The notes: generated from the letters alone by a model not told the origin. A stretch of DNA of 64,000 nt from a virus (IMGVR_UViG_3300042691_047443:1-64000), one strand, 5' to 3'. Positions 20,434 through 40,838 are shown, counted from the stretch's first letter. Numbers and translations are program-made.

Positions 20434-21155
20434 GATTTCACCGCCTGAGCGATCAACTCTGCGCGCTCCACCCGTTCCTCAATGACGCTCCATTTGAATT
20501 CTTTCATTTGAGAAACAAGATAGCTTTTCTTGTCAGAGAGGTAATCTCTTGTATAGCTGTGCTCCCACATGTCAACGACGATTACTGGAAATACGCCCAA
20601 CATCACGTCTCCACTGTGATGGCTTACGATCATGTTCACAAACCTACGCAAGAACATGTGGTATCCACAGACTGCCCAGCCGTTTCCGGCAGACATTGCT
20701 GTCGCCATGAAGTCCTTTTGCCACGTATCAAAAGTTCCAAAGTCCCTCTGTAGTCGCAGATAGGCCTTGGAATCCATGACAATTTCGCTGTGTGGATCAA
20801 AACAATTTGCAAAATAAAGTTCGTGAAGCCAGACTGCATTGAGGTTATACGACTCATCTAGTTTCAGTGAACGAAATTCAGAGTGACGTGGATTTGCCTC
20901 TGATCGATCTGCGGTATCCAACTTCGAAGAAACGTCGTTCAGCGACTGAATGTAATTCTTGTAGAGGCCTTGGTGCATGTCTTTCGTTTTTTGAGAGACT
21001 AGTTCAGAAACCTGCTTGAATTGCTTCGGTTCTGCAACATATGCTTCATCCAAGGTGCTTCTGTTTTGTGTAACAGATTCTTTGACTGTTTTCTTCAAAA
21101 GCATGTCTAGGTCCGTACTGTCTATGATTGAACGTCCTGAATTAATCGACCTCAT
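20430..21155 (-). CDS. Fe/Mn superoxide dismutase family protein with N-terminal extension
   Basis: Metal-ligand motifs MH, LHELYF, DMWEHSY; RDFGTFD.W..DF; GNGWA. Confidence 0.88.
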   Translation of the reverse strand: MRSINSGRSIIDSTDLDMLLKKTVKESVTQNRSTLDEAYVAEPKQFKQVSELVSQKTKDMHQGLYKNYIQSLNDVSSKLDTADRSEANPRHSEFRSLKLDESYNLNAVWLHELYFANCFDPHSEIVMDSKAYLRLQRDFGTFDTWQKDFMATAMSAGNGWAVCGYHMFLRRFVNMIVSHHSGDVMLGVFPVIVVDMWEHSYTRDYLSDKKSYLVSQMKEFKWSVIEERVERAELIAQAVKS

Positions 21156-21458: not shown

Positions 21459-21896
21459 TTACCCCGATTTGTCCATTTTGATCGCGTCTTGATAACTGAG
21501 CACCTCAATTCCGGCAGATCTCATCATTTCAAGACCTGAAGTGTCCCTGTATTCGTGCAGGTATATGACTCTAGAGATTTCAGCGTTTATTATAAGTTTT
21601 GAGCATGCCCGACAGGGGCTATGCGTAACATACATATGTTTCTTTTTAGAAAAGTTGTAATCACACTTAATTAATGCATTAACTTCTGCGTGAATAAACC
21701 CGCTTTGGCCTGGTTCTTGTGATTCGTGACAATTAGGGCCGCCCTTGTAGTTACCATTGTAACCCATCGACAACATCTGAGTGTTGTCTTCTGCTACGAC
21801 AATGGCACCAACTTTTAACCGTGGATCGTAAGATCTTCCAGAGATAACGTTTGCAACGTCCATCCACGTTTCTGACCAATATTTTCTTTGATTCAT
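21459..21896 (-). CDS. dCMP deaminase
   Basis: KVGAIVV; GYNG; HAEVNA; THSPCRACSKLII. Confidence 0.93.
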   Translation of the reverse strand: MNQRKYWSETWMDVANVISGRSYDPRLKVGAIVVAEDNTQMLSMGYNGNYKGGPNCHESQEPGQSGFIHAEVNALIKCDYNFSKKKHMYVTHSPCRACSKLIINAEISRVIYLHEYRDTSGLEMMRSAGIEVLSYQDAIKMDKSG

Positions 21897-22483
21897 TTCT
21901 TTAACTTAAGATTAAAAACTGTTGGAAAATGAGTGGCGCACCTGGGTTCGTAAAGTTCATCGCCACCCACCTCAACCACAAATTCATCTCCGCCTAATGT
22001 CTTTTTATGCGTAAAGGGGGCATCATCTCCACAAACGGTGCAAACCGCAGTGCACTTCTCTATCCGGGTTGCCCAAGGCAACATCTGAGAAATTTCAGGG
22101 AAAGGCTTTCCGTTCGATGCCATGTCCAGCGTTGACACGATCACGTTAAAACCACTTTGGTACAAAAAGACAAGAACCTCAGCAATTCCCGGAATCATAA
22201 AGGCTTCATCTACGGCAATAACGTGAGGATCTTCACTTGCATTGGCAAGAAAGTGCAAGATATCTGCGCCTTCTTGCACACAAACTGCAGAATGCCTCCA
22301 TCCACCGTGTGTCATGATTTCAGCAACGCTGTACCTCGTGTCCATGGTGGGTTTAAAAACAGCAACCCTTTCACGTTGATACTTGTAACGTTCCAGGTCC
22401 ATCAATAACCTAGACGTTTTTGAGCTAAACATGGGACCACAGTATACATTAAAGACAGGATTTTTCTGCATCAGATTCCCCAC
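21893..22483 (-). CDS. tdk: Thymidine kinase
   Basis: GPMFSSKT; FKP..DTRY; IAVDEA; CTVC; VGG.ELYEPRC. Confidence 0.93.
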   Translation of the reverse strand: MGNLMQKNPVFNVYCGPMFSSKTSRLLMDLERYKYQRERVAVFKPTMDTRYSVAEIMTHGGWRHSAVCVQEGADILHFLANASEDPHVIAVDEAFMIPGIAEVLVFLYQSGFNVIVSTLDMASNGKPFPEISQMLPWATRIEKCTAVCTVCGDDAPFTHKKTLGGDEFVVEVGGDELYEPRCATHFPTVFNLKLKK

Positions 22484-23070
22484 TAATCTAAGGTATAATT
22501 TTTACATAAGGTGTTCATCAACAAAATATTCAAATTTTCCTTGAATGGCGTCCTGAGCCATTCTGGGATGACATCATGCCAATGGTGAGGCTTATAATTG
22601 TTTCTGTCTGCCGCAACGTTGAAATGCCTATCATAATTAGGACCTTTCTCATGTACGTGACCATGAACAATATGCAAAAAATCACCCAAGGCTGATTCGT
22701 CAAACTTTTTATCGGAAAGTGACTTAAGTGGATAGTGTGACAACGCCACACCCCCTAGGTTAAGATAATCGTAAACAGCGATGAAACCTGAATCTATGTA
22801 CCACTGATCCTGCTGGTGATCGTGATTACCTCTGATCAGGATCTTCTTACCGTTCATTCGCCGGATCAATTCTCTTAATTCTTCAATTCTTCCCTTTAAT
22901 CCGGCCGATATGTCGCCTACAAAAACCCCGACGTCGTTTTCCTCTACCCGAGAGTTCCAGTTCTCTAACATGTGTTCGTTCATTTGGGCTGAGTCCACGA
23001 AGGGCCTGGAACAATACCTGATGATATTTTCGTGAAAATAGTGATTGTCTGATGTGAAATAAACCGTCAT
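22483..23070 (-). CDS. Calcineurin-like metallophosphoesterase
   Basis: TSDNH; GD; GNHD; SHYP; HGHVH. Confidence 0.92.
   Translation of the reverse strand: MTVYFTSDNHYFHENIIRYCSRPFVDSAQMNEHMLENWNSRVEENDVGVFVGDISAGLKGRIEELRELIRRMNGKKILIRGNHDHQQDQWYIDSGFIAVYDYLNLGGVALSHYPLKSLSDKKFDESALGDFLHIVHGHVHEKGPNYDRHFNVAADRNNYKPHHWHDVIPEWLRTPFKENLNILLMNTLCKNYTLD
22490..22518 (-). promoter_or_regulatory. Sigma70-like promoter, leaderless
   Basis: ATGAAC-N17-TACCTT-N6-GTG(22483). Confidence 0.45.
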
Positions 23071-23071
23071 A

Positions 23072-24661
23072 TTAAATTCTCAATGTGTTCCAAATTGTGT
23101 CCTTGTTGTCCTCTGACAGCCAGGATGGTAAATTTTCCTTGAAAATTCTGCTCTCCCCTGAAGAGAGGTAATCTCTCATATCGCTTGCACACAAACCATT
23201 TGTCAACGTCCTTGAGATCGACACGTGTGATAGTCGTTCCTTAAATTGTGGGAGACGTGTGAGGAACGACTCCAACCTTGACTTCGCATCATCGTCGCCA
23301 TCGCCTGTGGAGCCTCCATAGATTGACACAGAACCAGATGCTCCGGTCAAGAATCTTTTTGCAAACAACAAGGCTTCCGTCATAGGAGACCCGGAAAACG
23401 AAGCATAAAGACCCGAGCCGTACATAATTTCCATCTTAGGAAAGTACACGTCCCTCCACAACGTCAGCATGTCATGTGTTGATACGTTTGAACGATCTTT
23501 CGTCGACAAGAACAACATCACTGACTTGCAACCGTCACTAAATGCACGATCAATTAGAGAGGCATGACCAGCGTGAAAAGGCTTTGCAGCCATGGGAATC
23601 AAGGCAACGTTGTCTGACTTGTCAGGTCCCAATAGGTTCAGCTTTGCGGTAAGAAACACATCATCTTGGACACTCAAAAGTGTTTTTATGGAATGTGCTG
23701 GTAGCGTTTTTGTTCGATAAATGCGAGAAGACAGTTCTCCAAAAGTCTCCTGTAGATCACTTATTACGACGTCTTTAGTCATTTCAGCAGCTACTTTGTG
23801 AATAGCTTCCCAGTATGTTTCCTCGTCTCTTTCTGTTGCTTTGAATCTTGATTTCTTTGCGTCTCGTACTTCTTTCAAGTGTTGGTCAGGAGCAAGCACT
23901 TTGCTAAGAGATTTCCCGTCGTCGCCTGTACGTTCAATCACTACACCTTCGGATTGACCACCGAGAACAGATTGAAAATCCTCAAACACGCCTATCAGAC
24001 GTTTCATCACCTCTTCGTGACGATCGAAATCAACGTGTCGAAAAGCCGAAATCAACAATTCTCTAACGCTACCAACAGCCGAACCGAATTCAATCGCCTC
24101 AGGTGCATTCATCCGTCCTTTAAATAAAGTTGGAAATTCACCAAGCTGTAACAATTGTCGATATTTTTCAAAGCGCTGCGCGTCATCGTGAAACATCGAA
24201 GAGCTGTACAGACGACCACGAAACTGTACAAAATTGCAGTCGCCAAAACCCACAAGGAACATGTTGTGTTTCAGCACATAGTCACGAGTAATCGTGGGCT
24301 TATTCTGTACAAACTCAACGAAAAATTCAGTGTTTCTCGGAATCTCTGCACAATCAGGGTGAACCTTCCGTAAATGATCATGCACAAACTTATATTGAGA
24401 CGTGCCGATGGAAAATTCCCGTATCTCGGAATCACGCTCAGCAAGACCACAAAATTCAGTGGCGTGAATGATGTTGTCCTTGTATGACACAATCCAGTTT
24501 TTGGTATAATCGATAGGATCAAATACTTCACAATTTCTGATTAACGTAAGCTTTGTTCCATCAATCTTTTCCACGATCTTCAGGTGACCGTCGAAAAAAA
24601 TCTTTGCCTTGCTTGCGGATGTTATTGTCTTCTTTAAGTCTTTAATCGAAATATCAAGCAT
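23072..24661 (-). CDS. Fusion of ATP-dependent ligase-like adenylation domain and HxGH nucleotidyltransferase domain
   Basis: EKIDGT (motif I), EFFVEF, SEGVVI, KV; C-terminal KPFHAGH and ASDMR. Confidence 0.75.
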   Translation of the reverse strand: MLDISIKDLKKTITSASKAKIFFDGHLKIVEKIDGTKLTLIRNCEVFDPIDYTKNWIVSYKDNIIHATEFCGLAERDSEIREFSIGTSQYKFVHDHLRKVHPDCAEIPRNTEFFVEFVQNKPTITRDYVLKHNMFLVGFGDCNFVQFRGRLYSSSMFHDDAQRFEKYRQLLQLGEFPTLFKGRMNAPEAIEFGSAVGSVRELLISAFRHVDFDRHEEVMKRLIGVFEDFQSVLGGQSEGVVIERTGDDGKSLSKVLAPDQHLKEVRDAKKSRFKATERDEETYWEAIHKVAAEMTKDVVISDLQETFGELSSRIYRTKTLPAHSIKTLLSVQDDVFLTAKLNLLGPDKSDNVALIPMAAKPFHAGHASLIDRAFSDGCKSVMLFLSTKDRSNVSTHDMLTLWRDVYFPKMEIMYGSGLYASFSGSPMTEALLFAKRFLTGASGSVSIYGGSTGDGDDDAKSRLESFLTRLPQFKERLSHVSISRTLTNGLCASDMRDYLSSGESRIFKENLPSWLSEDNKDTIWNTLRI

Positions 24662-25814
24662 TCAACTTCCTATTATAGTACGAAGCGATCATCTTCTCTA
24701 CGTGATGATCATACACCTTCAGAAATTGAAGTTCATTCCTGAACATATTTACCGCAGGCATCTTTGTGCTATAATCATTCGATTCATCAAAAATGTCGAG
24801 GACTTGGCTTTTTTGACCGAAAAGTTTGTGATCTACGAAGTCAAGGTATATGTCACATATAACCTTTTCTTCAAAGAAAGAGTTCAGCAGCGTCAACAGG
24901 CCCAGAAATGATGAGAACAAGTTCAGATCATCTTTAGTCGGGACTCGTGACACGAGCATTTCAAAAATGTCAGATTTACTCCTGACAAAAATAGAATCAC
25001 GTGCCTCAGTCTTTTTATATGCAAATTTTCCCGACACCATGACAGGAGTACAATCACGGTAGAATTGTTGTTCAGCTGCAACTCTCAATCCTTTGTCAAC
25101 AGAAAATGACAAAGTGTGAACATGGTCTGATTTTGCAAGCCTAATTTTTTCGAACGGTTCTAACGGGCTTTGTGGCGTTAACAACACTGCATCATGTCTG
25201 GATGATACAACAGTTGCAATACTTCTCAACAGAAGTTTGTGGAACACGCCTTTGACGCCTGCCTTTACGTCAAACCAATTTGATGACTTAGAAAATTTAA
25301 TGAACTCGAGCGGACCATTAGCATCATATGGTGTCCCTTCAAAATCTATCTGAACCTTTAACTTGTTTAACTCATTGAGTTCATATTCAAAAACAGAATT
25401 TATCTGACCGTTTGTTAATGAAGGCTTCTGACCTAAAAAGCTATGCTTTTCGGTAATTTTTTTACCCTGCATTGAACTAAGAACCTCGGACAGCGCACGT
25501 AAATTATTGTCTGGTACTGTTATGTCAAGATCGCCGATCTTCGGCTTGTATCGAACAAACTCCTCAGAGGAAATACCGTAGTCAAACAAGTGAGATGAAG
25601 AACCGTTGAAAACAGCGCATGTTGAAAAAAGATCGCTCCTCACCCCTTTTGGCCAAAGATTTAGACCGACGTGATCATGATACGCAGAATCTATCTGCTC
25701 AAACAAAAGTAAGAAATCATTCACAAAACGATCCCTATCTAGGATCCTGAAGTCAGGTTTGTCAGGCCTTTGATTGAGTCCATTAACGTCAACAACAACA
25801 ACATTCCCACCCAT
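24654..25814 (-). CDS. Pol-beta superfamily nucleotidyltransferase
   Basis: MGGN start; NGSS...GDLDI...QIDF catalytic pattern. Confidence 0.7.
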   Translation of the reverse strand: MGGNVVVVDVNGLNQRPDKPDFRILDRDRFVNDFLLLFEQIDSAYHDHVGLNLWPKGVRSDLFSTCAVFNGSSSHLFDYGISSEEFVRYKPKIGDLDITVPDNNLRALSEVLSSMQGKKITEKHSFLGQKPSLTNGQINSVFEYELNELNKLKVQIDFEGTPYDANGPLEFIKFSKSSNWFDVKAGVKGVFHKLLLRSIATVVSSRHDAVLLTPQSPLEPFEKIRLAKSDHVHTLSFSVDKGLRVAAEQQFYRDCTPVMVSGKFAYKKTEARDSIFVRSKSDIFEMLVSRVPTKDDLNLFSSFLGLLTLLNSFFEEKVICDIYLDFVDHKLFGQKSQVLDIFDESNDYSTKMPAVNMFRNELQFLKVYDHHVEKMIASYYNRKLNA

Positions 25815-25820
25815 CTTAAT

Positions 25821-26369
25821 TTAATCCTGGTTCAATACTACGAACGGAGATTTTACGCTGGGAGAATACTCCCCTGCGACCGCAAGGGCCCTTTCTATCT
25901 TTTGCTTTGGCGTCAGCGATATGTCATGGTAAAGAACATTCATCGCGCCTAGCGCATATGCAAATCCAGAGCCTGACACTGCAAACTTTTGTCTTAAAGA
26001 ACTTACGTTAAAGTCGGCCTCAATCACGTATATGTTTCCCTTGAATCCAAGAACGATCTCGGAGTCATGAGCATCTCCAGTTTCTTCCTTGAAAAGAACG
26101 CCCTTTGTGTCAAGCAGATTTCTCAGGCACTCCACAAAGTCGCACACTAGATATTCCATGTGTGCCTTATTGTTGAGAAACTTGGGAGGCCTGAGAGACC
26201 AACGTAACAGTTGTCCTATTCTGAAACTGCCTGAAAATCCAATAAGAAACTCACCGTTCTTGAAAACCTTTTCATCTTGACGAATGAGAACCTCATCCTC
26301 CCGATAAGAAGCGGAATCTGCACCCATCCAGATGGAACCATTATCTTCAAGTGCGACAACGCAGGTCAC
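25821..26369 (-). CDS. HslV/proteasome beta-like Ntn protease
   Basis: N-terminal Thr (MTCVVAL), GADS, KV, GFSG, SGSG..YALGAM. Confidence 0.85.
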   Translation of the reverse strand: MTCVVALEDNGSIWMGADSASYREDEVLIRQDEKVFKNGEFLIGFSGSFRIGQLLRWSLRPPKFLNNKAHMEYLVCDFVECLRNLLDTKGVLFKEETGDAHDSEIVLGFKGNIYVIEADFNVSSLRQKFAVSGSGFAYALGAMNVLYHDISLTPKQKIERALAVAGEYSPSVKSPFVVLNQD

Positions 26370-27130
26370 TTGAAAGCCTTTCCATATACAGACTCAGGAT
26401 AAGCGTCTCGATACTTTGACCTTGTAATACTCAACTCGCCAGTTTTCAAAAAGTGATCGACTAGGTAAAAATCTCTCTCATATACATGGATGCTTCCGAC
26501 CTGCCAGTGCAGATTACCTGCAGGATAACCAAGCTCACTCGCTACCTTCTCTAACATATGTTGCTGCCAAGATCTATCATTCTTGTATCCAATTAGCGCA
26601 TCGTTACTACGCATTTGCACGATAGCATGGCACTGTCCATTTCTTATAACATACTGAACTGCGTTGGTACACATGAAATCACTGCGACCGTTTGCGCTGT
26701 AATCTTCCCACATTGAAGGTCTTGTGTAGATGATGATTGCCCGTCGACTTTCTGGGTTCTTCCTCAATTCGCCTACGACCTTTTCGAACTGAGATCCGTT
26801 CTCGGGGCTTCGGACGCACCACCCATAGTTAGAGTTGATCTTACCGTCGGCACAGGCAATTGCACGCCAAACAGCAGGTGCGCCACCGGGAAAATCATTC
26901 ACGTTAAGCGACATGGAGTCATACCACTCTTCTTCACGCTTTACGTAATCATGGTTCACTTCTCCGAAAATAACTTCGTCGCCTGCAATGAAACTGGCAC
27001 CGACAATCTCAATCGTGCGAGACCCCATGAGATTGGTCATTGATGCCTCTCGATTGATGGACGTGAAGTGATTCCCCAAAAATAGATTTGCGAACTCATT
27101 CCTAATATCGATCACATTATTGTAATTCAC
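26366..27130 (-). CDS. dCMP hydroxymethylase (T4 gp42-like thymidylate synthase homologue)
   Basis: INSNYGW, SRRAIIIYTRPSM, SDFMCTN.VQY.IR, MRSND..GYKND, GSIHVY closely match gp42; GTG start chosen by GTGA overlap (ORF track start 27163). Confidence 0.9.
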   Translation of the reverse strand: MNYNNVIDIRNEFANLFLGNHFTSINREASMTNLMGSRTIEIVGASFIAGDEVIFGEVNHDYVKREEEWYDSMSLNVNDFPGGAPAVWRAIACADGKINSNYGWCVRSPENGSQFEKVVGELRKNPESRRAIIIYTRPSMWEDYSANGRSDFMCTNAVQYVIRNGQCHAIVQMRSNDALIGYKNDRSWQQHMLEKVASELGYPAGNLHWQVGSIHVYERDFYLVDHFLKTGELSITRSKYRDAYPESVYGKAFK

Positions 27131-28095
27131 TTGTTTAACCTCATGTTGCTGATCCATGACCAATTGTTATTATACCACTCGATAGTACGTTCCAGACCTT
27201 CCCAGAATCTAACAAGGGGACTATATCCCAACGTTATATGGATACAGTTAACGCTTGCTTGAGTGTGCATCACATCGCCCGAGCGCCATGGTGCATCGTG
27301 GCTTTTTGCATCTGGAAATCTTCCTTTAAGAAACTCAAGGATTTCTTTATTTGTTGTCCTGTCGCCGCAGGCAACATTGAAACAAGCGGCCGCAAGATCG
27401 TTATGGTGCGCTGCTGCACGCACGCAGGCATCTGTCACGTTATCAACGTAGCACATGTCTCGTGACTGTGAACCGTCTCCGTCACTGCGCATCGACATGC
27501 CTTTGTTTATGGCCGTAAGCCACGCAGAAACCGCAGTTGAATATGGAGAATCTCCCAATTGATTTGGTCCGAATACGTTGAAGAACCTCAAGGCAACTGA
27601 ATCAAGTTCGTACAGATCATAATAGATCTTCAGGTAATCTTCAATAATTGACTTCTGCAACGCATAGGGGGACTTTGGGTCCTTCTTTGTGGCTTCAACC
27701 GTTGGAAGCTTTTGAGCCCCACCATAGACAGAGGACGAAGATGCAAACACAAAGCGTTTTACGTTGTTGCGACAGGCTTCCATCAATTGAAGCGTCTTAT
27801 TTACGTTGGTTTCGTGCGTCTCAATGGGGTGTTCCACAGAATAACTCACCCGTGGTACAGCTGCGAGGTGAAAAATCACATCAAACCACTTTGACCTAAT
27901 CCTCGAAAGAACAGACTCAGAAGAAAAGTCTTCCTTTAAAAAGAGATTTGGATTGGCTGCAAAAAGAGGGGGCAAAAATTCCGTGTGACCATTTGAAAGA
28001 TCATCAACACCTGTGACATCCCAACCTTCCTTGAGACACCTTGCTACGAGGTTACTTCCGATAAAACCTGCAGCACCTGTGATCAAAACTCGCAT
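27127..28095 (-). CDS. NAD-dependent NDP-sugar 4-epimerase (extended SDR)
   Basis: GAAGFIG; HLAA; ASSSSVYG; YALQK; RFFNVFGP; SRD..YVDNV. Confidence 0.9.
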   Translation of the reverse strand: MRVLITGAAGFIGSNLVARCLKEGWDVTGVDDLSNGHTEFLPPLFAANPNLFLKEDFSSESVLSRIRSKWFDVIFHLAAVPRVSYSVEHPIETHETNVNKTLQLMEACRNNVKRFVFASSSSVYGGAQKLPTVEATKKDPKSPYALQKSIIEDYLKIYYDLYELDSVALRFFNVFGPNQLGDSPYSTAVSAWLTAINKGMSMRSDGDGSQSRDMCYVDNVTDACVRAAAHHNDLAAACFNVACGDRTTNKEILEFLKGRFPDAKSHDAPWRSGDVMHTQASVNCIHITLGYSPLVRFWEGLERTIEWYNNNWSWISNMRLNK

Positions 28096-28116
28096 CTAAA
28101 TCTCCTGAATGAAACA

Positions 28117-28145
28117 AATTTACAACAGAAAAAGCTCATGTACAC
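28117..28145 (-). promoter_or_regulatory. Sigma70-like promoter
   Basis: GTGTAC-N17-TAAATT then AGGAG RBS. Confidence 0.55.
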
Positions 28146-28150
28146 ATGAC

Positions 28151-29473
28151 TCAAAGTAGGTTCATCTTACGCATTGCATGTGTGGTTGTCGACTCATAGG
28201 AACAACGATCCCTCACAACGTTGAGCAACGGAACCATCGAATTGCACCACTCTTTTGTGCCCTTGTTTTGCTTAACGTGATCTATGAGATTGGACGCAAC
28301 TTCAACTATGTCAGAGAAATCTGACTTTGCTAGAACGGGTACTTTAAACCCAAGCTCAGATGCATCTCGAATGATTCCGGAGTATTCAAAATTATTCAAC
28401 CATAGAGGTAAACAGCCCAATTCTACACACTCTCTGGCGACAGTTCCACCATACGTGTCTTGGTCATACAGGCCTAAAGCGATGTCGACATGCGTTGCAA
28501 CAACCTTGAATTCATCACGTGTAAACGAATCAGGAACAAGAGAGACGTAACCGTTGTGACCGCACTCTGACGTAAGTTCCTCATTGGAGAACTTCTGGCT
28601 TGGGTTCCCAGCAAGAACGACGAAATCATTTCGTCTCTCATGTAAACGTGGAAGTACGTCAAACATGAATTTGCCACAATTTGTGTAATCTGACGATCTT
28701 CCTTTGCCACCGATCCGGTTTGGAACAAAGATAATTGTCTTGCCTTGCTCACGCCATCGATTGAAGACATTGGGATCAAATCGGATCCCATCAAGGTCAG
28801 GCGCGGACCTAATCTCCTCGATCGAATATCCGTCATCCCACGGTGATGATTTTGCCATTACAGCGTCCACGACGCCATCACGGAATAACTTACGTGCCTC
28901 TGCCTCAAATTCAGAAAGCGCGGACCCACATTGCCAAAAGTTCCAATCTGCCTTTAAGGCGGCCTCACATTGACCCAACCACAATGATGCATCAATCGGA
29001 AACTTGGGACAGGACGGCACATCTACAAAGTGTGAATGAACATAAAATTTAGGTTGATATCCACCTTCAAGGAGGAACATCGCCTTAAAGTTTCTAAGGT
29101 GCATCGGATCGTTGAGATACACCGCATCATATCTCACTGTAACTTCCGTCTTGTGCCTTGAAAGACCTAGTCTACGTGACAGCGAAGAAACGTCAAAGTT
29201 GTACCGAGTCGCAAGTGCATTCGGAAAAATGTCATGCTCCACGTAGTGTACACGTGAACCCCATGGAATATCAGGATTTACCTGATACGGTGTGGTGACC
29301 ACAGACCCTTCGGAAAGAAGGGGACCCATAACGTGAATCACGAGATCCGGATTCTGTTTTAGCATTTCACGGACACGACCCATGACCATCTGCCATCCAG
29401 AGTCACACTCAAGGATGAATCTGCCTCGTGTGTCATAGTTAGAAAGTTGTGTTTGAATAAGTAATTTTTTCAT
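28151..29473 (-). CDS. Putative GT-B glycosyltransferase (DNA glycosyltransferase candidate)
   Basis: Two Rossmann-like halves; IIFVPNR; DTYGGTVARECVELGCLPL donor-binding motif; gene context. Confidence 0.65.
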   Translation of the reverse strand: MKKLLIQTQLSNYDTRGRFILECDSGWQMVMGRVREMLKQNPDLVIHVMGPLLSEGSVVTTPYQVNPDIPWGSRVHYVEHDIFPNALATRYNFDVSSLSRRLGLSRHKTEVTVRYDAVYLNDPMHLRNFKAMFLLEGGYQPKFYVHSHFVDVPSCPKFPIDASLWLGQCEAALKADWNFWQCGSALSEFEAEARKLFRDGVVDAVMAKSSPWDDGYSIEEIRSAPDLDGIRFDPNVFNRWREQGKTIIFVPNRIGGKGRSSDYTNCGKFMFDVLPRLHERRNDFVVLAGNPSQKFSNEELTSECGHNGYVSLVPDSFTRDEFKVVATHVDIALGLYDQDTYGGTVARECVELGCLPLWLNNFEYSGIIRDASELGFKVPVLAKSDFSDIVEVASNLIDHVKQNKGTKEWCNSMVPLLNVVRDRCSYESTTTHAMRKMNLL

Positions 29474-29486
29474 GTGTTTCTTTGTG

Positions 29487-30029
29487 TTATCCCAGAAAAG
29501 AAATGATATCAGACACTTCTCTGTCTAGATTTTCGTCGTCGACATTCAGCTTCATATAATCACAGGCTGTGATTTCATGTAGGTATTTTTCATAGTGATC
29601 GTCTAGCTTCTGCAGGGTTTCTTGCTGAATTCTAGAATCTAGATCATCAATGATTCCTGTGTACGAACTTCTGCGACAAAAGATTATTTTTGCCCCCAAG
29701 GATGCCCACTGCTTGTCCATGTGGACAAGAAACTTCTCATCAGTCTTGCGATGAAACACGGATGAATAGACCCATTCACACGGAAAACCCCTGTCAAATA
29801 TAACTCCGTAACCGGTCTGCTTCAAAAGATCAAGTACGCGAGGATCGGCATGCCGCAATTGTGACAGAAACAATTCATTTTTGTCATCCATCGACAAAAA
29901 CGATGAATGTTCAGAGGAGGCCTTAAAATAAGGAACACTTAGTCGGACCGACAACTCTTTTGCAATCTGTGTCTTGCCACACATATCAGGACCAACCATG
30001 AACACTAAACGTTGTTTTTGTTTCAACAT
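29487..30029 (-). CDS. dNMP kinase (thymidylate kinase-like)
   Basis: P-loop GPDMCGKT; IFDRG..CEWVY. Confidence 0.85.
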   Translation of the reverse strand: MLKQKQRLVFMVGPDMCGKTQIAKELSVRLSVPYFKASSEHSSFLSMDDKNELFLSQLRHADPRVLDLLKQTGYGVIFDRGFPCEWVYSSVFHRKTDEKFLVHMDKQWASLGAKIIFCRRSSYTGIIDDLDSRIQQETLQKLDDHYEKYLHEITACDYMKLNVDDENLDREVSDIISFLG

Positions 30030-30035
30030 GAAGAT

Positions 30036-30064
30036 ATCTTAACTTAAGTTATGTCGCTGTACAC
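30036..30064 (-). promoter_or_regulatory. Sigma70-like promoter, leaderless
   Basis: GTGTAC-N17-TAAGAT-N6-ATG(30029). Confidence 0.6.
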
Positions 30065-30588
30065 ACTTCAAAATCGATGATGTGACCGTGCGTACCCGCA
30101 CCCTTCTTGACATGTCCATGTTGGGGGCAGTGAATTGTGTACTGTGCTGCGTCTGGATAGATTTTAATGATCTCTCCTGTTTCCTTTTTGCCCTTAAATG
30201 TAAAGGACACCTGATCTCCTAAAGCAAACTTTGCAGTGACCCCGTGTGCAAGAATCCAGCTATGATATACAATCTCCTTATGTGCAAGGTAACGCTGATG
30301 TGCAACGTCTTCAAGCAAGTCAACAAGATCGGCATCAGGGTCCCAGCCAGCGTGTTCCAAGTTCTTGGCGATGTGATACGCATCGTCGTCGTACTCAATC
30401 GCTGAAAAAATCTCAGCCTTTATCACCTCAAGCTCTTGAGCTGAAGGAGCCCCGCCTTCTTGGCACACCCACTGGATGATTTTTGGTGTGACGCGTTCTG
30501 AAGTGAGAGAGTTGACTTCCTTGCTAAGATAGCGAGGTCGCGGCGGAAGAGGAAGGTCATCGAATAGCTGAAGTTGCATACCTTTCAT
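30049..30588 (-). CDS. Hypothetical protein with C-terminal KOW/SH3-like segment
   Basis: 179 aa; FALGDQV...GEII. Confidence 0.65.
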   Translation of the reverse strand: MKGMQLQLFDDLPLPPRPRYLSKEVNSLTSERVTPKIIQWVCQEGGAPSAQELEVIKAEIFSAIEYDDDAYHIAKNLEHAGWDPDADLVDLLEDVAHQRYLAHKEIVYHSWILAHGVTAKFALGDQVSFTFKGKKETGEIIKIYPDAAQYTIHCPQHGHVKKGAGTHGHIIDFEVCTAT

Positions 30589-30620
30589 AGGTTAATCCTT
30601 TAACAGGTCGTATAAAGATT

Positions 30621-30809
30621 TCACTTTTTATTTCCATAACCATCAGCGTACCACCCACCGCCTTGCAGGAGGAAACCTGAGCCCCCCGTGATGAGCCTGT
30701 TCCGAGTCTCTGAACCGCACTTTGGACACGTGGCTCGAGCTTCTTCTTTCATCGACTGATTCACTTCAAACTGATTTTCGCATGCATCACATTTATAATC
30801 GTACTTCAC
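30621..30809 (-). CDS. FmdB-family zinc-ribbon protein
   Basis: YDYKCDAC...FE..Q......CPKCG....RLI......L.GGGWY..GY; GTGA overlap with the dnaE stop. Confidence 0.85.
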   Translation of the reverse strand: MKYDYKCDACENQFEVNQSMKEEARATCPKCGSETRNRLITGGSGFLLQGGGWYADGYGNKK

Positions 30810-33800
30810 GTTATCTTCCTCATTTTCCATTGGGATGTTGAAAGTCCAAAATCATCTCTCTTGACTTCTGCACAGAACAAGGTAAATGCATCAGGCAGGT
30901 CCTTTTGCCCCCAAACTGTCACTCGTTGAACCTTGCCTGTAGGGCCTGCAACATAGATTTGGACGTATTCCTTTCCTGCCTTTGAGGATTTTTTGATACC
31001 TGTCACAGGCGTTGCTCCCTTCTTCGGGGAAGTTGGAGATACAACCATCCAACACAATTGCGGATCTCCTTGTTCAACCTCTTCGATCGATTTGATGCCC
31101 CTTGTTTCAAAGGCGTTCAACACATTTGAATCTATCAGGCTGATGATGTCAATCGCACCAAACACCTCCACCATGTTTTGCGCCCTCTCCGTCGGAGACC
31201 ATTCCTCTACGGAAGAATTTTGCCTCAGTAAGTTGTAAAAATTCTTGAGTCCTTCGTGAGGATCAGACTTTGTCGAGCGTTTGATGAGTGCCGAGTGATC
31301 AAATTCAACATCCTCCGTGACTTCAATTCCCTTCTTTTTCCTTGTCACGGACTCAACATGCGATCCAAGCAAGGTTTGGTACATGTGATTGTAGTTGTTA
31401 AATAACATACCTTCACCAACCATGTTCATGGAGTCAAAAGCCCCAATCTTTATCAGGGCCTCAAGCGCCTTCTTGTTGAACTTACTGTGTCTCCATTCAA
31501 AGTTTTTGTCCCACAGCAGCTCTTCAATCGTAGAATAGGGCCGATTTTGGACAATCTCTTCAAGAGCGGAAGAACCGACACCCTTACACGATGTCATAGA
31601 AGGCATCAATCTTCTTCCCGGAAGAACTGTCCAACCAGACGTCGCAAGATTGATATCGATTGGTACGATCTGATAACCCAGAGACTTTACCTCACCGAAG
31701 GCTTTGGCACGCGACTCCGGGTTGTTTGACATTGACTCAAGGTATGCGGAAATCCACTCCTCCTCGTGGTAGGTGAGCAACCATGCACACCAAAACGAAT
31801 CAATTGCGTATGCAACTGCATGTGCCTGATTGAAACCGTATCCCGAGAAATACAGAATCTTGTCGTAGAGGTTGTTTGCCACAGGTTCAAGGTAACCATT
31901 TTTTACGCAACCAATCACAAAGCTCGATCGCGTCTCCTCTGCTGCTTTCTTTGCTGCCTCGCCCCCTGAGATAGAACGCTTCATGATGGCTCGACGAACC
32001 TCATCGCACTGCTCCTTAGGGAATCCGGCACACTTCTCTGCCAACTCCATGACCTGTTCCTGGAAGATGATCAGGCCTCGTGTCTTTTCCAGGATTTTGT
32101 TGATTCTTTGATCACCCCATTCGTACTCTTTTCCTTCCCTTGCCTCAAGGTACAGCTTGTCCACGTTTGCAGCAAGAGGACCCGGTCGATAGATTGACGT
32201 CAGCGCCGCAATGTCAATGATGCTCTTTGGTTTTGCCTTCACAAAGAGTTTCTGCGCGCCTTGAGACGTCAGCTGGAAGATACCAGACCACTTTGCTTTT
32301 TCATATACCTCATAAGGTTTTGGGTCATTGAAATCGATCTTACTGGGGGCCATGTGTTCGTCATACCATGCCCTGATGTCGGAAAACGTGGGATTCTGAT
32401 TCCCGCCCTTGCGAAGGACCAATTCAATTGTCCTTTCAATCAAACGAAGGGTCTCAAGGCCGAGAAGGTCGTACTTGATGAAGTTGCCAATATATTCTAG
32501 GTGTTTAAAATTTACCCCTTCGACCCATGGAGACTGTGGCTCACCACCGGATGTGATGAGTGGCATCTTTCGTGGAAGATCATCTGCGATGAGAACGCCG
32601 CCTGCGTGGCGACCCAGTGAACGATTCTGTTTGAAGAGAATCTTGATGGATTCGGCAACGTGTGGATACTTGTCGATGAAGTCCTTGAAAGTAGGAGAGT
32701 GGGCGTATGCATCATCATATTGCAGCACGAAAAGGTTTTTGTCATCGCCATGCTTCGTGGTCGCCCTTCTTACGTCCTCCTCAACCGTCTTTGTTGCTGC
32801 ATTTACCTCTTCAAAGGGAATTCCGTAAAACTTGCTTACGTCCTTGACGAGACTTTTCACCTTGAAGGTGTTGTAGTTCGAGATAGGAACCACGTTGTCA
32901 AATCCGAAGTAGTTTCGCAACTGTTCAAGGACCTTATCTCTGTCGGCAAGGTCGGTATCAATGTCAGGTGCACCTTTACGATACACCGAGAGAAAACGGC
33001 TGAAAGGCAAGTCCCAAAAGACAGGATCAAGGTCTGTAATGTACAGTACGTAATTGACTAGAGAACCTCCTCCCGATCCACGTCCGGGGCCGACAAGGCA
33101 CACTTTTCTCGCAAGTTCAATGATTTTCTGGTACGAGATGAAATAGTCTGCGTTCTTCATCGTCTTGATGACGCCTAGTTCTTCACGTAAACGCTCGATG
33201 TACTCAGGCTTATCCTGTAATCCTCGCTTCACCATTCCTTCCTTACAGAGGGAAACAAGGTGATTGAACGAAGAAATGTCTTTGGGAACCAACCTTTGGG
33301 TTGGAAACTTGGAGGTCCTGTCTGGCGGCACTTCGCCGATAACGTGATGCGCGATGTCGTGAGAGCGTTCGATGGCCTCCAGCACCTCATCATCATCGTA
33401 AAAGCCTGTCTCCTCCTTAGAGCGGAGGTACTCCTCCCATACCTGAGAGGCGTTCTTGGGGTACAGCTCACACTTCAGATCATCCTTTGACTTGGGGAGA
33501 GAATCTGGGCTGTACGTGGTGTAGTTCATGAACCCGAGCTTCTTATACAGCTCACGCTCTTTCCACAGCTCGGGCCGGTGGTAGTGCGAATCGCAGGTTA
33601 CCACGAGCTGTTTAGTTGTCCCCGTACGACGTGCAAACTCGAGAATCGCACGATTGACAAGGTTCTGAGCGGGAAGCCTATTGAACTGCAACTCGAGAAA
33701 GTAATTCTCTCGACCCACCGCAGAGGTCATCATGTCGTACACATTGCCGATGGCATTTACGCACTTATTCAAGAGGACGGCGTCATCAAGCAACTTCTCG

Positions 33801-34498
33801 TTCAGGTTGTCAAAAGCCACTCTCTGCAACTCTTGAAAGACAACCCAGGACGGAAAACCACCGAGGCAAGCGGAGGAAACAACAATATCACCGTTTTTTC
33901 CAGCCTCACGCAGCATACCGAGATCCATTCGAGGAAACCTATAAAAGCCATGTAGATATGACTTAGAGGTTGCCTCGAACAGAGACAGGAGACCACGCTG
34001 GTTCTTCGGTAGGATCACCATGTGATGGCGTCGATTCACTGGATTAAAGTGCTTCGTCGACTTTGACTCGTCCTCATTCTCAATGGTGAGAGCGTTTGTA
34101 GTCTCAATCTCTTCTGTCTCATCCTCAGAGTCCACCCGAGCGATGATCCTCGTCTTCAGGTCTTCCTGTTGCTTCTGCAACTTTGAAGCAGCCTTCTTGT
34201 CGATGGCGGCCTGATCAGCCAGATCCTTGTCACGCTGCCACTGGGCAAGATCTGGGTGGAAGTACGCCTCGATTCCAGGAATGTACTTAAACTTTCCCTT
34301 GTCGGAAGAATTCCACTTTTCTACCCAAAGCTGGGCGTGTGCATATGAATTAAAGTTACCGTGTTCAGTGAGAGCATGGGCGTCAAGGCCGTTCTCCATG
34401 CACCAAGTAAAATGCTCATCAGGATAGCCTAAGCCGTCAAAGGGGCTGAAGCCTGAATGACCGTGAAGGCCGACGAAACGATTGGGTGTGCGAGACAT
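30806..34498 (-). CDS. dnaE: DNA polymerase III alpha subunit (family C)
   Basis: PHP motifs HGHS..S..DG, TEHG, DSHY; GRGSGGGSLV.Y.L.IT..DP; PDIDTD; HAGGV; KYDLLGL; RPGP; YGFNQAHAVAY. Confidence 0.96.
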   Translation of the reverse strand: MSRTPNRFVGLHGHSGFSPFDGLGYPDEHFTWCMENGLDAHALTEHGNFNSYAHAQLWVEKWNSSDKGKFKYIPGIEAYFHPDLAQWQRDKDLADQAAIDKKAASKLQKQQEDLKTRIIARVDSEDETEEIETTNALTIENEDESKSTKHFNPVNRRHHMVILPKNQRGLLSLFEATSKSYLHGFYRFPRMDLGMLREAGKNGDIVVSSACLGGFPSWVVFQELQRVAFDNLNEKLLDDAVLLNKCVNAIGNVYDMMTSAVGRENYFLELQFNRLPAQNLVNRAILEFARRTGTTKQLVVTCDSHYHRPELWKERELYKKLGFMNYTTYSPDSLPKSKDDLKCELYPKNASQVWEEYLRSKEETGFYDDDEVLEAIERSHDIAHHVIGEVPPDRTSKFPTQRLVPKDISSFNHLVSLCKEGMVKRGLQDKPEYIERLREELGVIKTMKNADYFISYQKIIELARKVCLVGPGRGSGGGSLVNYVLYITDLDPVFWDLPFSRFLSVYRKGAPDIDTDLADRDKVLEQLRNYFGFDNVVPISNYNTFKVKSLVKDVSKFYGIPFEEVNAATKTVEEDVRRATTKHGDDKNLFVLQYDDAYAHSPTFKDFIDKYPHVAESIKILFKQNRSLGRHAGGVLIADDLPRKMPLITSGGEPQSPWVEGVNFKHLEYIGNFIKYDLLGLETLRLIERTIELVLRKGGNQNPTFSDIRAWYDEHMAPSKIDFNDPKPYEVYEKAKWSGIFQLTSQGAQKLFVKAKPKSIIDIAALTSIYRPGPLAANVDKLYLEAREGKEYEWGDQRINKILEKTRGLIIFQEQVMELAEKCAGFPKEQCDEVRRAIMKRSISGGEAAKKAAEETRSSFVIGCVKNGYLEPVANNLYDKILYFSGYGFNQAHAVAYAIDSFWCAWLLTYHEEEWISAYLESMSNNPESRAKAFGEVKSLGYQIVPIDINLATSGWTVLPGRRLMPSMTSCKGVGSSALEEIVQNRPYSTIEELLWDKNFEWRHSKFNKKALEALIKIGAFDSMNMVGEGMLFNNYNHMYQTLLGSHVESVTRKKKGIEVTEDVEFDHSALIKRSTKSDPHEGLKNFYNLLRQNSSVEEWSPTERAQNMVEVFGAIDIISLIDSNVLNAFETRGIKSIEEVEQGDPQLCWMVVSPTSPKKGATPVTGIKKSSKAGKEYVQIYVAGPTGKVQRVTVWGQKDLPDAFTLFCAEVKRDDFGLSTSQWKMRKIT

Positions 34499-34504
34499 GT
34501 GCCA

Positions 34505-34534
34505 ATCATAACTTGTGTCAATGCTAGTTTACAC
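34505..34534 (-). promoter_or_regulatory. Sigma70-like promoter, leaderless
   Basis: GTGTAA-N18-TATGAT-N6-ATG(34498). Confidence 0.65.
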
Positions 34535-35531
34535 TAGAAAGTTCTTCCATGAACCACTTGATCGTACGACGGACCCCTTCCTCAAGGTCTACGGTGGGTT
34601 CCCATCCAAGAATCTCTTTTGCACGAGAAATGTCAGGTCTTCTCTGAAGAGGATCATCCTTGGGCAGGGGCATGTTGATCAATTCGGGTTTTGTCGCACC
34701 ATACAACAGGCGATTCACGAGGAGGGCAAGATCCATTACTGTGAACTCTGCGGGATTTCCAAGATTGATCGGCCCCCCTGGATTTTTCGACAGTCCTGCG
34801 AGTGTCGTGATGCCCCTGATCAAATCAGACACATAGCAAAAACTTCGGGTCTGCTTTCCACCGCCGTAGATGGTGTATGGCTGCCTCTTCAAGGCCTGAA
34901 CAATGAAATTACTGACGACTCGACCGTCAAGGGGATCCATGTTTTCGCCGTACGTGTTGAATATCCTGACGAGTCTTGCATCAACACCGTGCTTGTGCAG
35001 ATAATCGTAACACAAGGCCTCAGCGGCGCGCTTTCCTTCATCGTAACAGGATCTTGGGCCATATGAATTGACGTTTCCCTTGTAGGATTCCGACTGTGGC
35101 GAGACGTCTGGGTCTCCGTACACTTCAGACGTTGACGCGTGAACAAACACAGAATTGTGCTTTCGAGCAACATCCAGTATGTTTACGGTGCCTGCGGTAC
35201 AGGTAAGAAGCGTCTCGACGGGAATCTCCTGATATCTAGGAGGTGACGCAGGACACGCAAAGTTGTATATCAGGTCGATTTTTCCACCGTTTGTAGTAAT
35301 GAAATCATCAACTGCCGCGACGACGTCAAGTGTTGAACATATGTCAACTTTTCGAATCATTGCACGTTCAGGACTGTACATCTTGCGCACAAACATCGAA
35401 TGATGAGAATCTTCTCGGGAGGAGGAATAGTTGTCAAGTCCTAACACATTGTCACCAGCCTTTAAGTGATGAATCGTGAGATGACTTCCGAGAAAACCAG
35501 CCGCACCAGTGATCATAACATTCTTACCCAT
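34524..35531 (-). CDS. UDP-glucuronate decarboxylase (UDP-xylose synthase)
   Basis: GAAGFLG; ACPASPPRYQ; ASTSEVYGDP; GNVN..GPRSCYDEGKR; RIFNTYG; DGRVVSNFIVQAL; QTRSFCYVSD; DDP..RRPDI. Confidence 0.92.
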   Translation of the reverse strand: MGKNVMITGAAGFLGSHLTIHHLKAGDNVLGLDNYSSSREDSHHSMFVRKMYSPERAMIRKVDICSTLDVVAAVDDFITTNGGKIDLIYNFACPASPPRYQEIPVETLLTCTAGTVNILDVARKHNSVFVHASTSEVYGDPDVSPQSESYKGNVNSYGPRSCYDEGKRAAEALCYDYLHKHGVDARLVRIFNTYGENMDPLDGRVVSNFIVQALKRQPYTIYGGGKQTRSFCYVSDLIRGITTLAGLSKNPGGPINLGNPAEFTVMDLALLVNRLLYGATKPELINMPLPKDDPLQRRPDISRAKEILGWEPTVDLEEGVRRTIKWFMEELSSVN

Positions 35532-38383: not shown

Positions 38384-38725
38384 CTATTCCCAAACTACAA
38401 GATTCAACCTCTCTAAAAGAAATTTTATCTGTTCCACAAGAAGCAGCGATTCCTCTTGCTCTATCTTTGCGGCAGACAGTCTTTTTTTGATTCTTTCAAG
38501 TTTTGATATCGAAAGGTCTTTTGACGATTGACGTTCAAGAAGATCTTCCAGTCGGTGTCGACGCGAAGACGAAGACGTTAATTTAAAGCTGTACGTTTGC
38601 CAGAGTTTTTTAACGTACTCTGGGTCGTTCTCTAGATCTTTTTGCTCGTCTTTTGCTTCTTTACTTTTCTTCGTCAACGATCCCGGACGATAATTTTTCA
38701 ACGAAGCGGCCATAGTGTCCCTCAT
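38384..38725 (-). CDS. Hypothetical coiled-coil protein
   Basis: ORF fills the gap; true start probably downstream of 38725. Confidence 0.5.
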   Translation of the reverse strand: MRDTMAASLKNYRPGSLTKKSKEAKDEQKDLENDPEYVKKLWQTYSFKLTSSSSRRHRLEDLLERQSSKDLSISKLERIKKRLSAAKIEQEESLLLVEQIKFLLERLNLVVWE

Positions 38726-39446
38726 CCTGTTCTATTGCGATGAACTTTCTGCCTAACTTGCGAGCCGCAAATGCAGCAACACCAGATCCGGCAAACGGAT
38801 CTATTACCCAGTCACCTTGATTTGTGTTTACTTCAATTGGTATTTCAAATATTTTTGTCGGTTTTTGTGTTGGATGAACCTTTCCCGAAAATAGTTCATT
38901 TACGTCCATCCATACGTTAGTCCTTCTATAAAATTCGCTTTTGGCAGGATATTTGGCATTATAACCCGCATAACCTCTTTTTGTTTCAAGAAGCGGAACG
39001 TTAAAAACGGCGGGTTTCTTTATGTCTCCCTTGATCATGTACAATAGTTCTTCACGCGTAGATAGGTAATTGTGTTGTACGCCATAAGCACGCTTCTTCG
39101 ACCAGGTGATCAGGTTTGAAACGTTCATATCTGACTCTGATTCTATACGCGAAGCGTATTCAAAGAACGGCCTAAATCCTGCAACACCATAACCTCCCCA
39201 AACATACATTGCGCCCTGTGGAACCAGCAAATTGGAATAGGATTTGGTCCAAGAGATCATCCAGTCAACAAATTCAGACTGTGTTCCACTCCATCTGTCC
39301 CAACCATGGCGCAATATATTTCCGTAAGGAGGATCTGTGCACACAACGTGAACCTTGTCAACGATTGTTTTCACAAAGGAAACGACTTCTTCGCTGGTTG
39401 AGTCTCCGCAGATTGCAACGCCGTCATCGAATCTTTCAAACTTCAT
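38661..39446 (-). CDS. Site-specific DNA methyltransferase (N4-C/N6-A, beta class)
   Basis: TDPPY, HPTQKP, DPFAGSG. Confidence 0.92.
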   Translation of the reverse strand: MKFERFDDGVAICGDSTSEEVVSFVKTIVDKVHVVCTDPPYGNILRHGWDRWSGTQSEFVDWMISWTKSYSNLLVPQGAMYVWGGYGVAGFRPFFEYASRIESESDMNVSNLITWSKKRAYGVQHNYLSTREELLYMIKGDIKKPAVFNVPLLETKRGYAGYNAKYPAKSEFYRRTNVWMDVNELFSGKVHPTQKPTKIFEIPIEVNTNQGDWVIDPFAGSGVAAFAARKLGRKFIAIEQDEGHYGRFVEKLSSGIVDEEK

Positions 39447-40469: not shown

Positions 40470-40838
40470 TCAATATCCATTTTCAATCCTATCAAAATTT
40501 TTGACGCCTTTTTGCATGTATGCATGATACATTTCGTCAAGACTCACACCTGATGCAATCACAATCTCAAAGAAAAAATGCAGAGAATCAATAAGTTCCT
40601 CTAAATACGCATCTTTATCGAGGTCATTGACCTCTGTTGCACGGTGAGTTTTACTGTTCTTAAGCTCCTGATTTGCCTCGAATAATTCACCCATGCACTC
40701 ATAGGTGATGCTCTTCAGGAACTTTTGTCCAGCCTTTGAGCGAATGTCGACTGGGAACTCTGGAAATCCTCTCTTTTTCTTTAGAAGATTCATGAACTCC
40801 AGTTGCTGGTTCCACATTTCTTGTAATTTGTCCTGCAT
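40470..40838 (-). CDS. All-alpha dNTP pyrophosphatase (MazG-like; T4 gp56 dCTPase/dUTPase-like)
   Basis: ELFEA..EL...K.H; EELIDSLHFF; Y..K..KN..R...GY. Confidence 0.8.
   Translation of the reverse strand: MQDKLQEMWNQQLEFMNLLKKKRGFPEFPVDIRSKAGQKFLKSITYECMGELFEANQELKNSKTHRATEVNDLDKDAYLEELIDSLHFFFEIVIASGVSLDEMYHAYMQKGVKNFDRIENGY

Follow-up and report, generated by a model that had tools for sequence, protein, structure and literature searches.

A candidate pathway to glycosylated 5-hydroxymethylcytosine, with a possible pentose donor, in a giant freshwater phage encoding a DnaE-type polymerase

How may a phage decorate the cytosines of its DNA, and from where would the sugar come? The question is raised by the viral stretch IMGVR_UViG_3300042691_047443:1-64000, the whole 64,000 nucleotides of which are referred to here as the window. 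Its 26.3-35.6 kb region, part of a long minus-strand gene run, encodes in the order of transcription a UDP-glucuronate decarboxylase (UDP-xylose synthase, UXS), a DnaE-type DNA polymerase, a 69-aa zinc-ribbon-like open reading frame (ORF), a 179-aa protein, a nucleotide kinase, a 440-aa glycosyltransferase (GT), an NDP-sugar 4-epimerase, and a thymidylate synthase (TS) homologue. Across this module the genes overlap or are separated by gaps of 13-55 nt. A preliminary description of the sequence had proposed that the phage makes its own pentose donor and carries a pentosyl-hydroxymethylcytosine, and the five genes that it located on the minus strand are found at or near the positions it gave. 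In our assessment the phage DNA probably carries glycosyl-5-hydroxymethylcytosine (glycosyl-5hmC); that the sugar is a pentose is, taken overall, rated somewhat below an even chance.

The base is considered first. The TS homologue (26366..27157, minus strand, with ATG 27157, TTG 27163, or GTG 27130 as the start) matches the Pfam family Thymidylat_synt and, in the PDB, the T4 dCMP hydroxymethylase 1b49 with an E value of 4e-74, its identity to T4 gp42 being 51.4% over 216 aa. In a residue alignment that takes in the window enzyme, T4 gp42, RB69 gp48, and DLP3 gp80, the T4 residues E60, D145, C148, D171, D179, H216, and Y218 are all kept in the window enzyme, the catalytic Cys (T4 C148) being found in an FMCTN motif. 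The YKND motif singled out in the preliminary description indeed places an Asp at the position of T4 D179 (E. coli N177), which confers specificity for dCMP. Another Asp is found at the E. coli L143 position (T4 D145), where an acidic residue correlates with hydroxymethyl rather than methyl products (PMC13326640).

TS homologues with the dCMP-specifying Asp can give different C5 products, and Lee et al. 2026 identified 5-hydroxy-dCMP as the product of the "gp42-like" enzymes of RB69, DLP3, Thanatos, and RL38JI; an Asn at the E. coli D169 position has been proposed as diagnostic of such 5-hydroxycytosine (5hoC) synthases (PMC13326640). At this position (T4 D171) the window enzyme has an Asp in an MRSND motif, like T4, whereas RB69 and DLP3 have MRSQN, and the identity to RB69 gp48 is only 30%. 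On account of this Asp, of the D145 and D179 equivalents, and of the low identity to RB69 gp48, the predicted product is 5-hydroxymethyl-dCMP (5hm-dCMP) and not 5-hydroxy-dCMP, 5-methyl-dCMP, or dTMP. The assignment supported by the sequence comparison is thus a T4-type dCMP hydroxymethylase, neither a ThyA nor a 5-hydroxy-dCMP synthase. The ordinary ThyA acting on dUMP that the preliminary description had contemplated is at odds with the dCMP-specifying Asp, and a separate ThyX in the window covers the supply of dTMP.

The candidate for the transfer of a sugar to this base is the 440-aa protein encoded at 28151..29473 (minus strand), a proposal that draws on its fold and its gene context. The protein finds no match in Pfam, PHROG, or NCBIfam. 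The Pfam GT1/GT4 sequence models do not recognize it, with a PF00534 search of G000 returning empty, and tblastn searches of 50,697 deposited phage genomes (T4 included) with the protein and with a distant member of its family give no match. The AlphaFold (AF2) model, built on an alignment of 12 IMG/VR relatives at 49-64% identity, has a pLDDT of 86.5 and a pTM of 0.85 and displays a two-Rossmann-domain GT-B fold of the GT4 kind (retaining-type). Foldseek retrieves GlgM, MshA, and BshA with E values of 1e-13 to 1e-12. The comparison with BshA (6n1x) gives a VIA Z of 28.2 with a root-mean-square deviation of 3.6 over 354 residues, and those with PimA, MshA, and sucrose-phosphate synthase (6kih) give Z values of 25-26. 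The model thereby upholds the earlier assignment of a GT-B glycosyltransferase. The T4 α- and β-glucosyltransferases (AGT and BGT), to which the protein may still be distantly related, are not among the listed fold matches.

The family to which this GT belongs is small and has no characterized member. Among 1.84 billion proteins its profile picks out only 151 representatives, the closest clusters in the Atlas consist of viral "hypothetical proteins", and there is no similarity between the profile and DLP3 gp79. The model points to a divergent, virus-only GT-B family of its own. Three single-protein scans of viral contigs for the contexts of distant relatives gave no match.

The acceptor is suggested by the company that the GT keeps. 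In 12 of 12 viral relatives the genes follow the order dnaE, kinase, GT, epimerase, TS homologue, HslV-like genes, thymidine kinase, and dCMP deaminase. The kinase-GT-epimerase-hydroxymethylase block is kept across them at 49-68% identity, and the GT adjoins the epimerase in each, in some with inserted ORFs. The arrangement withstands the insertion of ORFs that look mobile, homing-endonuclease-like ones among them. The gp42-type enzyme itself is swapped in three relatives (L002:13943-14962, L010:15584-16585, and L011:14494-15336) for a longer, distantly related TS homologue of 280-339 aa with a C-terminal extension, in which both diagnostic Asp residues are kept; judged from the sequences, this is a non-orthologous replacement within the same module. 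The 12 relatives form a single lineage, so their synteny is partly inherited and not independent, which diminishes its weight as an argument for DNA glycosylation. Distant relatives of the GT were for this reason sought elsewhere.

Such relatives are found in two other settings. L048 derives from a phage whose polymerase belongs to family B; here the GT, recognized by hhalign with a probability of 99.4%, is accompanied by a PD-(D/E)XK nuclease, two proteins of unknown function, a UDP-sugar dehydrogenase (UGD), an SDR protein, a fusion of kinase and dCMP deaminase, PolB, and a TS homologue that has the two Asp residues. In L049 and L050, the GT has as neighbors a helicase resembling DnaB, a primase, a member of the UDG superfamily, dCTP-deaminase-like proteins, a dCMP deaminase, and, once more, a TS homologue in which the two Asp residues are present. 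The GT family is thus situated among pyrimidine-nucleotide and replication genes, beside a dCMP-type TS homologue, in three phage lineages, and in two of the three it has lineage-specific sugar-nucleotide enzymes beside it. It is mainly from this three-lineage context that we argue that the acceptor of the GT is a modified cytosine in DNA and that the neighboring sugar enzymes set the donor.

It can be mentioned here that in L048 (L048:3293-6770) the genes preceding the distant GT are those of the UGD and of the SDR protein, the latter being closest to GDP-mannose 3,5-epimerase. This gene set suggests a different, possibly uronic-acid-derived, DNA sugar in that phage.

The remaining enzymes that a pre-replicative route would call upon can be assigned with varying confidence. 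The kinase (29487..30029, minus strand) is weakly recognizable by sequence: it matches PHROG 761 (E 1e-7), has a GPDxCGKT P-loop, shows a faint similarity to RB69 gp45, and gives P-loop-level matches only in a profile search against PDB sequences. Its AF2 model (pLDDT 85.7) retrieves YorR (3kb2, E 5e-7) and many Tmk structures in Foldseek, and on the basis of this fold the protein is taken to be a YorR/thymidylate-kinase-type P-loop enzyme and a candidate hm-dCMP kinase. The nucleotide kinase of the preliminary description therefore stands, as a Tmk/YorR-like and not a T4 gp1-like enzyme. A candidate counterpart of T4 gp56, i.e., a candidate dCTPase, is found outside the module at 40470..40838 (minus strand). 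The sequence of this all-alpha MazG/dimeric-dUTPase-like NTP pyrophosphohydrolase matches phrog_12184 (E 2e-12), phrog_173 (E 1e-10), and, weakly, Pfam dUTPase_2, and its phage matches are annotated as dUTPase, dCTP pyrophosphatase, or MazG. The pyrimidine genes further comprise a dCMP deaminase (21459-21896, minus strand; Pfam dCMP_cyt_deam_1, E 1e-19) and a thymidine kinase (21893-22483, minus strand; Pfam TK, E 8e-39), and the window also encodes a trimeric dUTPase, a class I ribonucleotide reductase, and an HD phosphohydrolase in addition to ThyX.

The DnaE-type (family C) polymerase alpha subunit, of 1230 aa (30806..34498, minus strand; Pfam PHP, DNA_pol3_alpha, finger, and HHH_6), is 50-70% identical to those of the relatives and is the sole full-length polymerase seen in the window. 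Alongside it there is a 402-aa PolA-like protein with a family A polymerase domain only (52585-53793; Pfam E 9e-11, PHROG 17 E 8e-27). The encoded DnaE of the preliminary description is thus confirmed; that the phage is replicated by it, as was also claimed, we infer only, because the PolA-like protein is encoded too. Copying of the modified DNA by the family C enzyme is plausible. In the window dnaE is uninterrupted, whereas most relatives (L002, L005, L009, L011, L008, L003, and L012) have it divided into 2-3 ORFs, the insertions probably being homing endonucleases or inteins.

Two sugar-nucleotide enzymes have to be considered for the donor. The UXS gene (34524..35531, minus strand, counted from the ATG; the ORF is open to 35603) lies directly upstream of dnaE, as previously described, and ends 25 nt from it. 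Its product matches human UXS1 (PDB 2b69) with an E value of 4e-88, the catalytic STSE, YDEGK, and QTR motifs being aligned, and is 50.6% identical to Uxs1 of S. meliloti (pSymB), on which grounds we assign it as a true UDP-glucuronate decarboxylase. The gene is present in 9 of 10 relative records searched (48-64% identity), the exception being a fragment that stops short of the expected position. Its distance from the GT is always 5-20 kb, toward dnaE and within the replication block. A co-occurrence of the genes across related phages, which the preliminary description had proposed as a check, is hence observed both for the four-gene block and for UXS.

The second enzyme is the NAD-dependent extended-SDR 4-epimerase (27127..28095, minus strand; Pfam Epimerase, E 6e-52), in which the SSS and YxxxK motifs, with the catalytic Ser, Tyr, and Lys, can be located by alignment to WbgU. 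Homologues at 65-82% identity form more than 100 clusters in metagenomes, on contigs of up to 369 kb. One of them (P0070, 69% identity) appears under the name of a Chlamydiae metagenome-assembled genome, an entry that probably reflects the inclusion of phage DNA in a bacterial bin. The action of UXS followed by that of a 4-epimerase leads to UDP-L-arabinopyranose. Such a route was suggested for the UDP-arabinose of RB69, in which the genes were not found (Thomas et al. 2018).

The pathway that we propose starts with the reshaping of the pyrimidine pool, which would be carried out by the MazG-like NTP pyrophosphohydrolase, the dCMP deaminase, and the dUTPase. The gp42-type enzyme would convert dCMP to 5hm-dCMP, a step for which the strong homology and the complete set of specificity residues argue. 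The YorR/Tmk-like kinase would phosphorylate hm-dCMP, with a host NDP kinase completing the triphosphate, and the phage replisome with DnaE would incorporate hm-dC. After replication, the 440-aa GT-B enzyme would move the sugar from a UDP-sugar to the hydroxymethyl group in the DNA, as suggested by its fold and conserved context, the donor being tailored by the 4-epimerase encoded beside it. The donor that we prefer is a pentose: UDP-glucuronate, from the host or from a phage UGD such as is seen in the complete relatives, would be converted to UDP-xylose by the phage UXS, and UDP-xylose would be either used directly or 4-epimerized to UDP-L-arabinopyranose. The scheme as a whole, in which UGD, UXS, and the 4-epimerase provide a private pentose donor and the virus-only GT-B enzyme installs xylopyranosyl- or L-arabinopyranosyl-hmC on DNA copied by DnaE, is put forward tentatively, as a possibility well short of an even chance. 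If glycosylation of the DNA is taken as given, the case for a pentose comes close to balance without reaching it, an N-acetylhexosamine (HexNAc) is a rather unlikely yet serious candidate, and the remainder goes to a uronic acid or another sugar.

A number of observations weigh against the pentose. UXS and the GT are parted by dnaE and three other genes. The nine best PDB matches of the epimerase (E 1e-50 to 2e-43) are WbgU, WbpP, and unnamed epimerase/dehydratase or capsular-biosynthesis entries, and TviC is the NCBIfam model that it matches best. The gatekeeper residue, Ser306 in WbpP and Tyr299 in E. coli GalE, is a Thr in the epimerase and thus small, which is also the case in enzymes accepting N-acetylated sugars; published work on gatekeeper residues takes this position to indicate the size of the pocket only. 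The identity to SmUxe, whose gene adjoins SmUxs1, is 29% (E 2e-29), lower than that to WbgU. UDP-xylose 4-epimerase (UXE) activity has arisen in several GalE-like lineages, and the 29% therefore neither shows nor excludes UXE activity. The nearest structural neighbors of the GT, with nearly tied Z values, use UDP-GlcNAc. Finally, a UGD, in this case a UDP-glucose dehydrogenase, is found in the three near-complete relatives in a separate cluster about 180 kb away, together with Gmd, a PseB-like dehydratase, a DegT aminotransferase, and 5-6 GT4 genes, and this distant glycan cluster could be a consumer of both UDP-glucuronate and UDP-xylose. Of the pentose donor claimed in the preliminary description, the UXS part is thus well founded, and the pentosyl nature of the sugar is placed in doubt by the WbgU/WbpP-like epimerase and the distant UGD cluster.

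These observations are accommodated by the alternative that survives best, in which 5hmC is glycosylated with a sugar other than a pentose. Here, the epimerase would turn UDP-GlcNAc of the host into UDP-GalNAc, or else produce the galacto form of UDP-GlcA or UDP-GlcNAcA, the GT would install a HexNAc or a hexuronic acid (HexA), and UXS would serve the glycan cluster or a second sugar transferred by another GT. The use of UDP-HexNAc by the top structural neighbors of the GT, namely BshA, MshA, PglA, and TarM, is consistent with this proposal, as are the epimerase-dependent HexNAc-, HexA-, and hexosyl (Hex)-5hmC products that have been demonstrated (10.1101/2023.12.21.572611). It fits less well with the location of UXS, which stays near dnaE in the relative records and not in the glycan cluster. 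Moreover, UXS followed by the 4-epimerase is the sole arrangement that puts both conserved sugar enzymes in one linear pathway, and the identity of the epimerase to the HexNAc epimerases (about 36%) is too low for their specificity to be transferred to it. On balance, we regard the non-pentose sugar as unlikely, albeit to be kept in view.

It is appropriate to add some details on the glycan cluster. It is located at L045 and L046 (G003:28000-62000) and is also seen in G002 and G005. Genes of NAD salvage, encoding a NadR-like NMNAT-Nudix protein and NAMPT, adjoin it, and the near-complete relatives have two further GT4 genes beside a PD-(D/E)XK nuclease.

We have also considered that the GT, the epimerase, and UXS assemble a glycan whose carrier would be virion proteins or a molecule of the host envelope, the hmC being left bare or otherwise modified. 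Enzymes with the GT4 fold typically glycosylate envelope components and small molecules, the glycan cluster of the complete relatives is large and does not look DNA-directed, and a DNA acceptor is deduced for this GT from its context. Yet the GT is found among TS homologues, dCMP/dCTP deaminases, kinases, and polymerases in three unrelated lineages and not in the glycan cluster, and the order of the module matches that of experimentally verified DNA-glycosylation modules. In addition, about 28% of the pathways with a GT-B-like enzyme in a metagenomic survey are associated with a thymidylate synthase (10.1101/2023.12.21.572611). This makes a non-DNA acceptor quite improbable. Still further down, and very improbable, is a TS homologue that makes 5-hydroxy-dCMP (as in RB69), 5-methyl-dCMP, or dTMP: the 5hoC phages share the kinase-GT-synthase order and the C5 products of such homologues do vary, but the Asp residues at the D169 and L143 positions and the closer identity to T4 gp42 than to RB69 gp48 (51 against 30%) argue otherwise, and the Asp at the N177 position excludes a preference for dUMP, with dTMP being supplied by ThyX.

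The pathway with a 5hmC acceptor can be compared with the known systems. It resembles the T-even glucosyl-5hmC system (T4 gp56, gp42, gp1, and the α-/β-glucosyltransferases) in the gp42-type enzyme with all of its specificity residues, in the presence of a dCMP deaminase, a thymidine kinase, and a candidate NTP pyrophosphohydrolase, and in a GT-B transferase gene near that of the hydroxymethylase, b-gt adjoining gene 42 in T4. It differs in that the kinase is YorR/Tmk-like rather than gp1-like, that the phage has its own 4-epimerase and UXS whereas T4 uses UDP-glucose of the host, and that a giant phage of about 330 kb with a DnaE-type polymerase takes the place of one with a family B enzyme.

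The gene order is closer to that of the phages with arabinosyl-5hoC (RB69 and DLP3) and hexosyl-5hoC (RL38JI), in which a Tmk/YorR-like kinase, a GT4-like GT-B enzyme, and a TS homologue follow one another (RB69 gp45, 46:47, and 48; DLP3 gp78-80; RL38JI gp214-216) (PMC13326640). The window module has the epimerase inserted into this order. The templates listed for the DNA arabinosyltransferases of RB69 and DLP3, i.e., BshA, PimA, MshA, and sucrose-phosphate synthase (Table 1, PMC13326640), are the same as those found here for the window GT, and a match to YorR, as for the window kinase, has been reported for the "nucleotide kinase" DLP3 gp78 (PMC13326640). Both these phages and that of the window would make their own unusual sugar donor. 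The Asp at the D169 position, however, predicts hmC and not 5hoC, and the donor routes are different: the 5hoC phages obtain UDP-arabinofuranose from ribulose-5-phosphate via an isomerase, a kinase/uridylyltransferase, and a phosphatase, none of which is present in the window, where UXS and the SDR epimerase are found instead.

A third point of comparison is provided by Pyle et al. 2023, who showed that a phage GT glycosylates 5hmC only with the adjacent epimerase, the products being Hex, HexNAc, and HexA (10.1101/2023.12.21.572611). Their "subclass II" metaviromic clusters share with the present module the adjacency of GT and sugar epimerase. In those clusters 5hmC arises post-replicatively through a methyltransferase and TET, whereas a pre-replicative, gp42-type route is predicted here, and no UXS or pentose product is reported for them, the words "pentose" and "xylose" being absent from the text (10.1101/2023.12.21.572611). 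As to the sugar chemistry, the nearest analogue is the conversion of UDP-xylose to UDP-L-arabinose by Uxs1 and Uxe of S. meliloti (Gu et al. 2011, as cited in PMC6024577). The phage UXS is 50.6% identical to SmUxs1, while the phage epimerase is no orthologue of SmUxe (29%) and the two phage genes are not adjacent.

The literature searched contains no phage DNA-modification module with UXS and no characterization of this GT family. The combination had been called undescribed in the preliminary description, and this holds for the UXS-fed route; a GT acting on 5hmC with an epimerase (10.1101/2023.12.21.572611) has already been published, as have pentoses on cytosine, which are known in RB69, DLP3, and Thanatos by other routes (PMC13326640).

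The identity of the base matters because sugar-coated cytosines decide which restriction, type IV, and CRISPR defenses a phage evades and to which sequencing and cloning methods its DNA is amenable. The lineage may carry an undescribed DNA base, installed by a GT family that is named in no database. With UDP-xylose or UDP-L-arabinose as the donor, the base would be new and pentosylated cytosine would have a third, independent route, distinct from the one that starts at ribulose-5-phosphate in RB69 and DLP3. Hypermodified templates would then also be copied by a polymerase of family C. The GT family, for its part, could serve as a new reagent for labeling 5hmC.

The source of the window is a single contig of 76,489 bp with 45.7% GC, for which CheckV gives a completeness of 23%. 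The three near-complete relatives have 309, 340, and 324 kb at 91, 99, and 86% completeness, respectively, and by this measure the record covers roughly one quarter of a giant phage genome of some 310-340 kb, i.e., a fragment from an uncultured freshwater phage. A search of sequencing runs finds the lineage to be common in lake and river metagenomes, and among the runs listed no RNA dataset carries the phage. A nucleotide search with the 9.2 kb region against deposited phages gave no match. Scans for promoters and terminators over 25.5-36.5 kb yield hits at chance level only and are thus uninformative on the operon structure.

Several neighboring genes were considered in connection with the module. 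Where relatives have ORFs inserted between GT and epimerase, the products are GIY-YIG-like, DUF7487, helicase, or amidase proteins and not additional enzymes of the pathway. The conserved 179-aa protein between dnaE and the kinase (30049..30588, minus strand), which matches phrog_17597 (function unknown) and has no Pfam match, is found in five relatives at 25-38% identity and is given as context only. Three genes lie in the window between the HslV-like gene and the thymidine kinase (22483-25814); their products are a protein of 386 aa (phrog_19290), one of 529 aa whose C-terminus resembles a cytidylyltransferase, and a phosphoesterase of 195 aa. Together with the gene of the HslV-like peptidase (22483-26369 in all), they were rejected as members of the pathway, the 386-aa and 529-aa proteins being absent from the modules of the relatives, and look like a separate nucleotidyl-transfer or repair unit. 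In most of the 12 relatives, a second HslV-like paralogue is situated at the position of the 386-aa and 529-aa genes. An N6/N4 DNA methyltransferase is encoded in the same gene block (38661-39446), and the DNA may thus be methylated besides the cytosine modification. Finally, the nucleotide-metabolism block also contains the gene of an Fe/Mn superoxide-dismutase-like protein (20430-21155), which is kept at 38-72% identity across the phage lineage.

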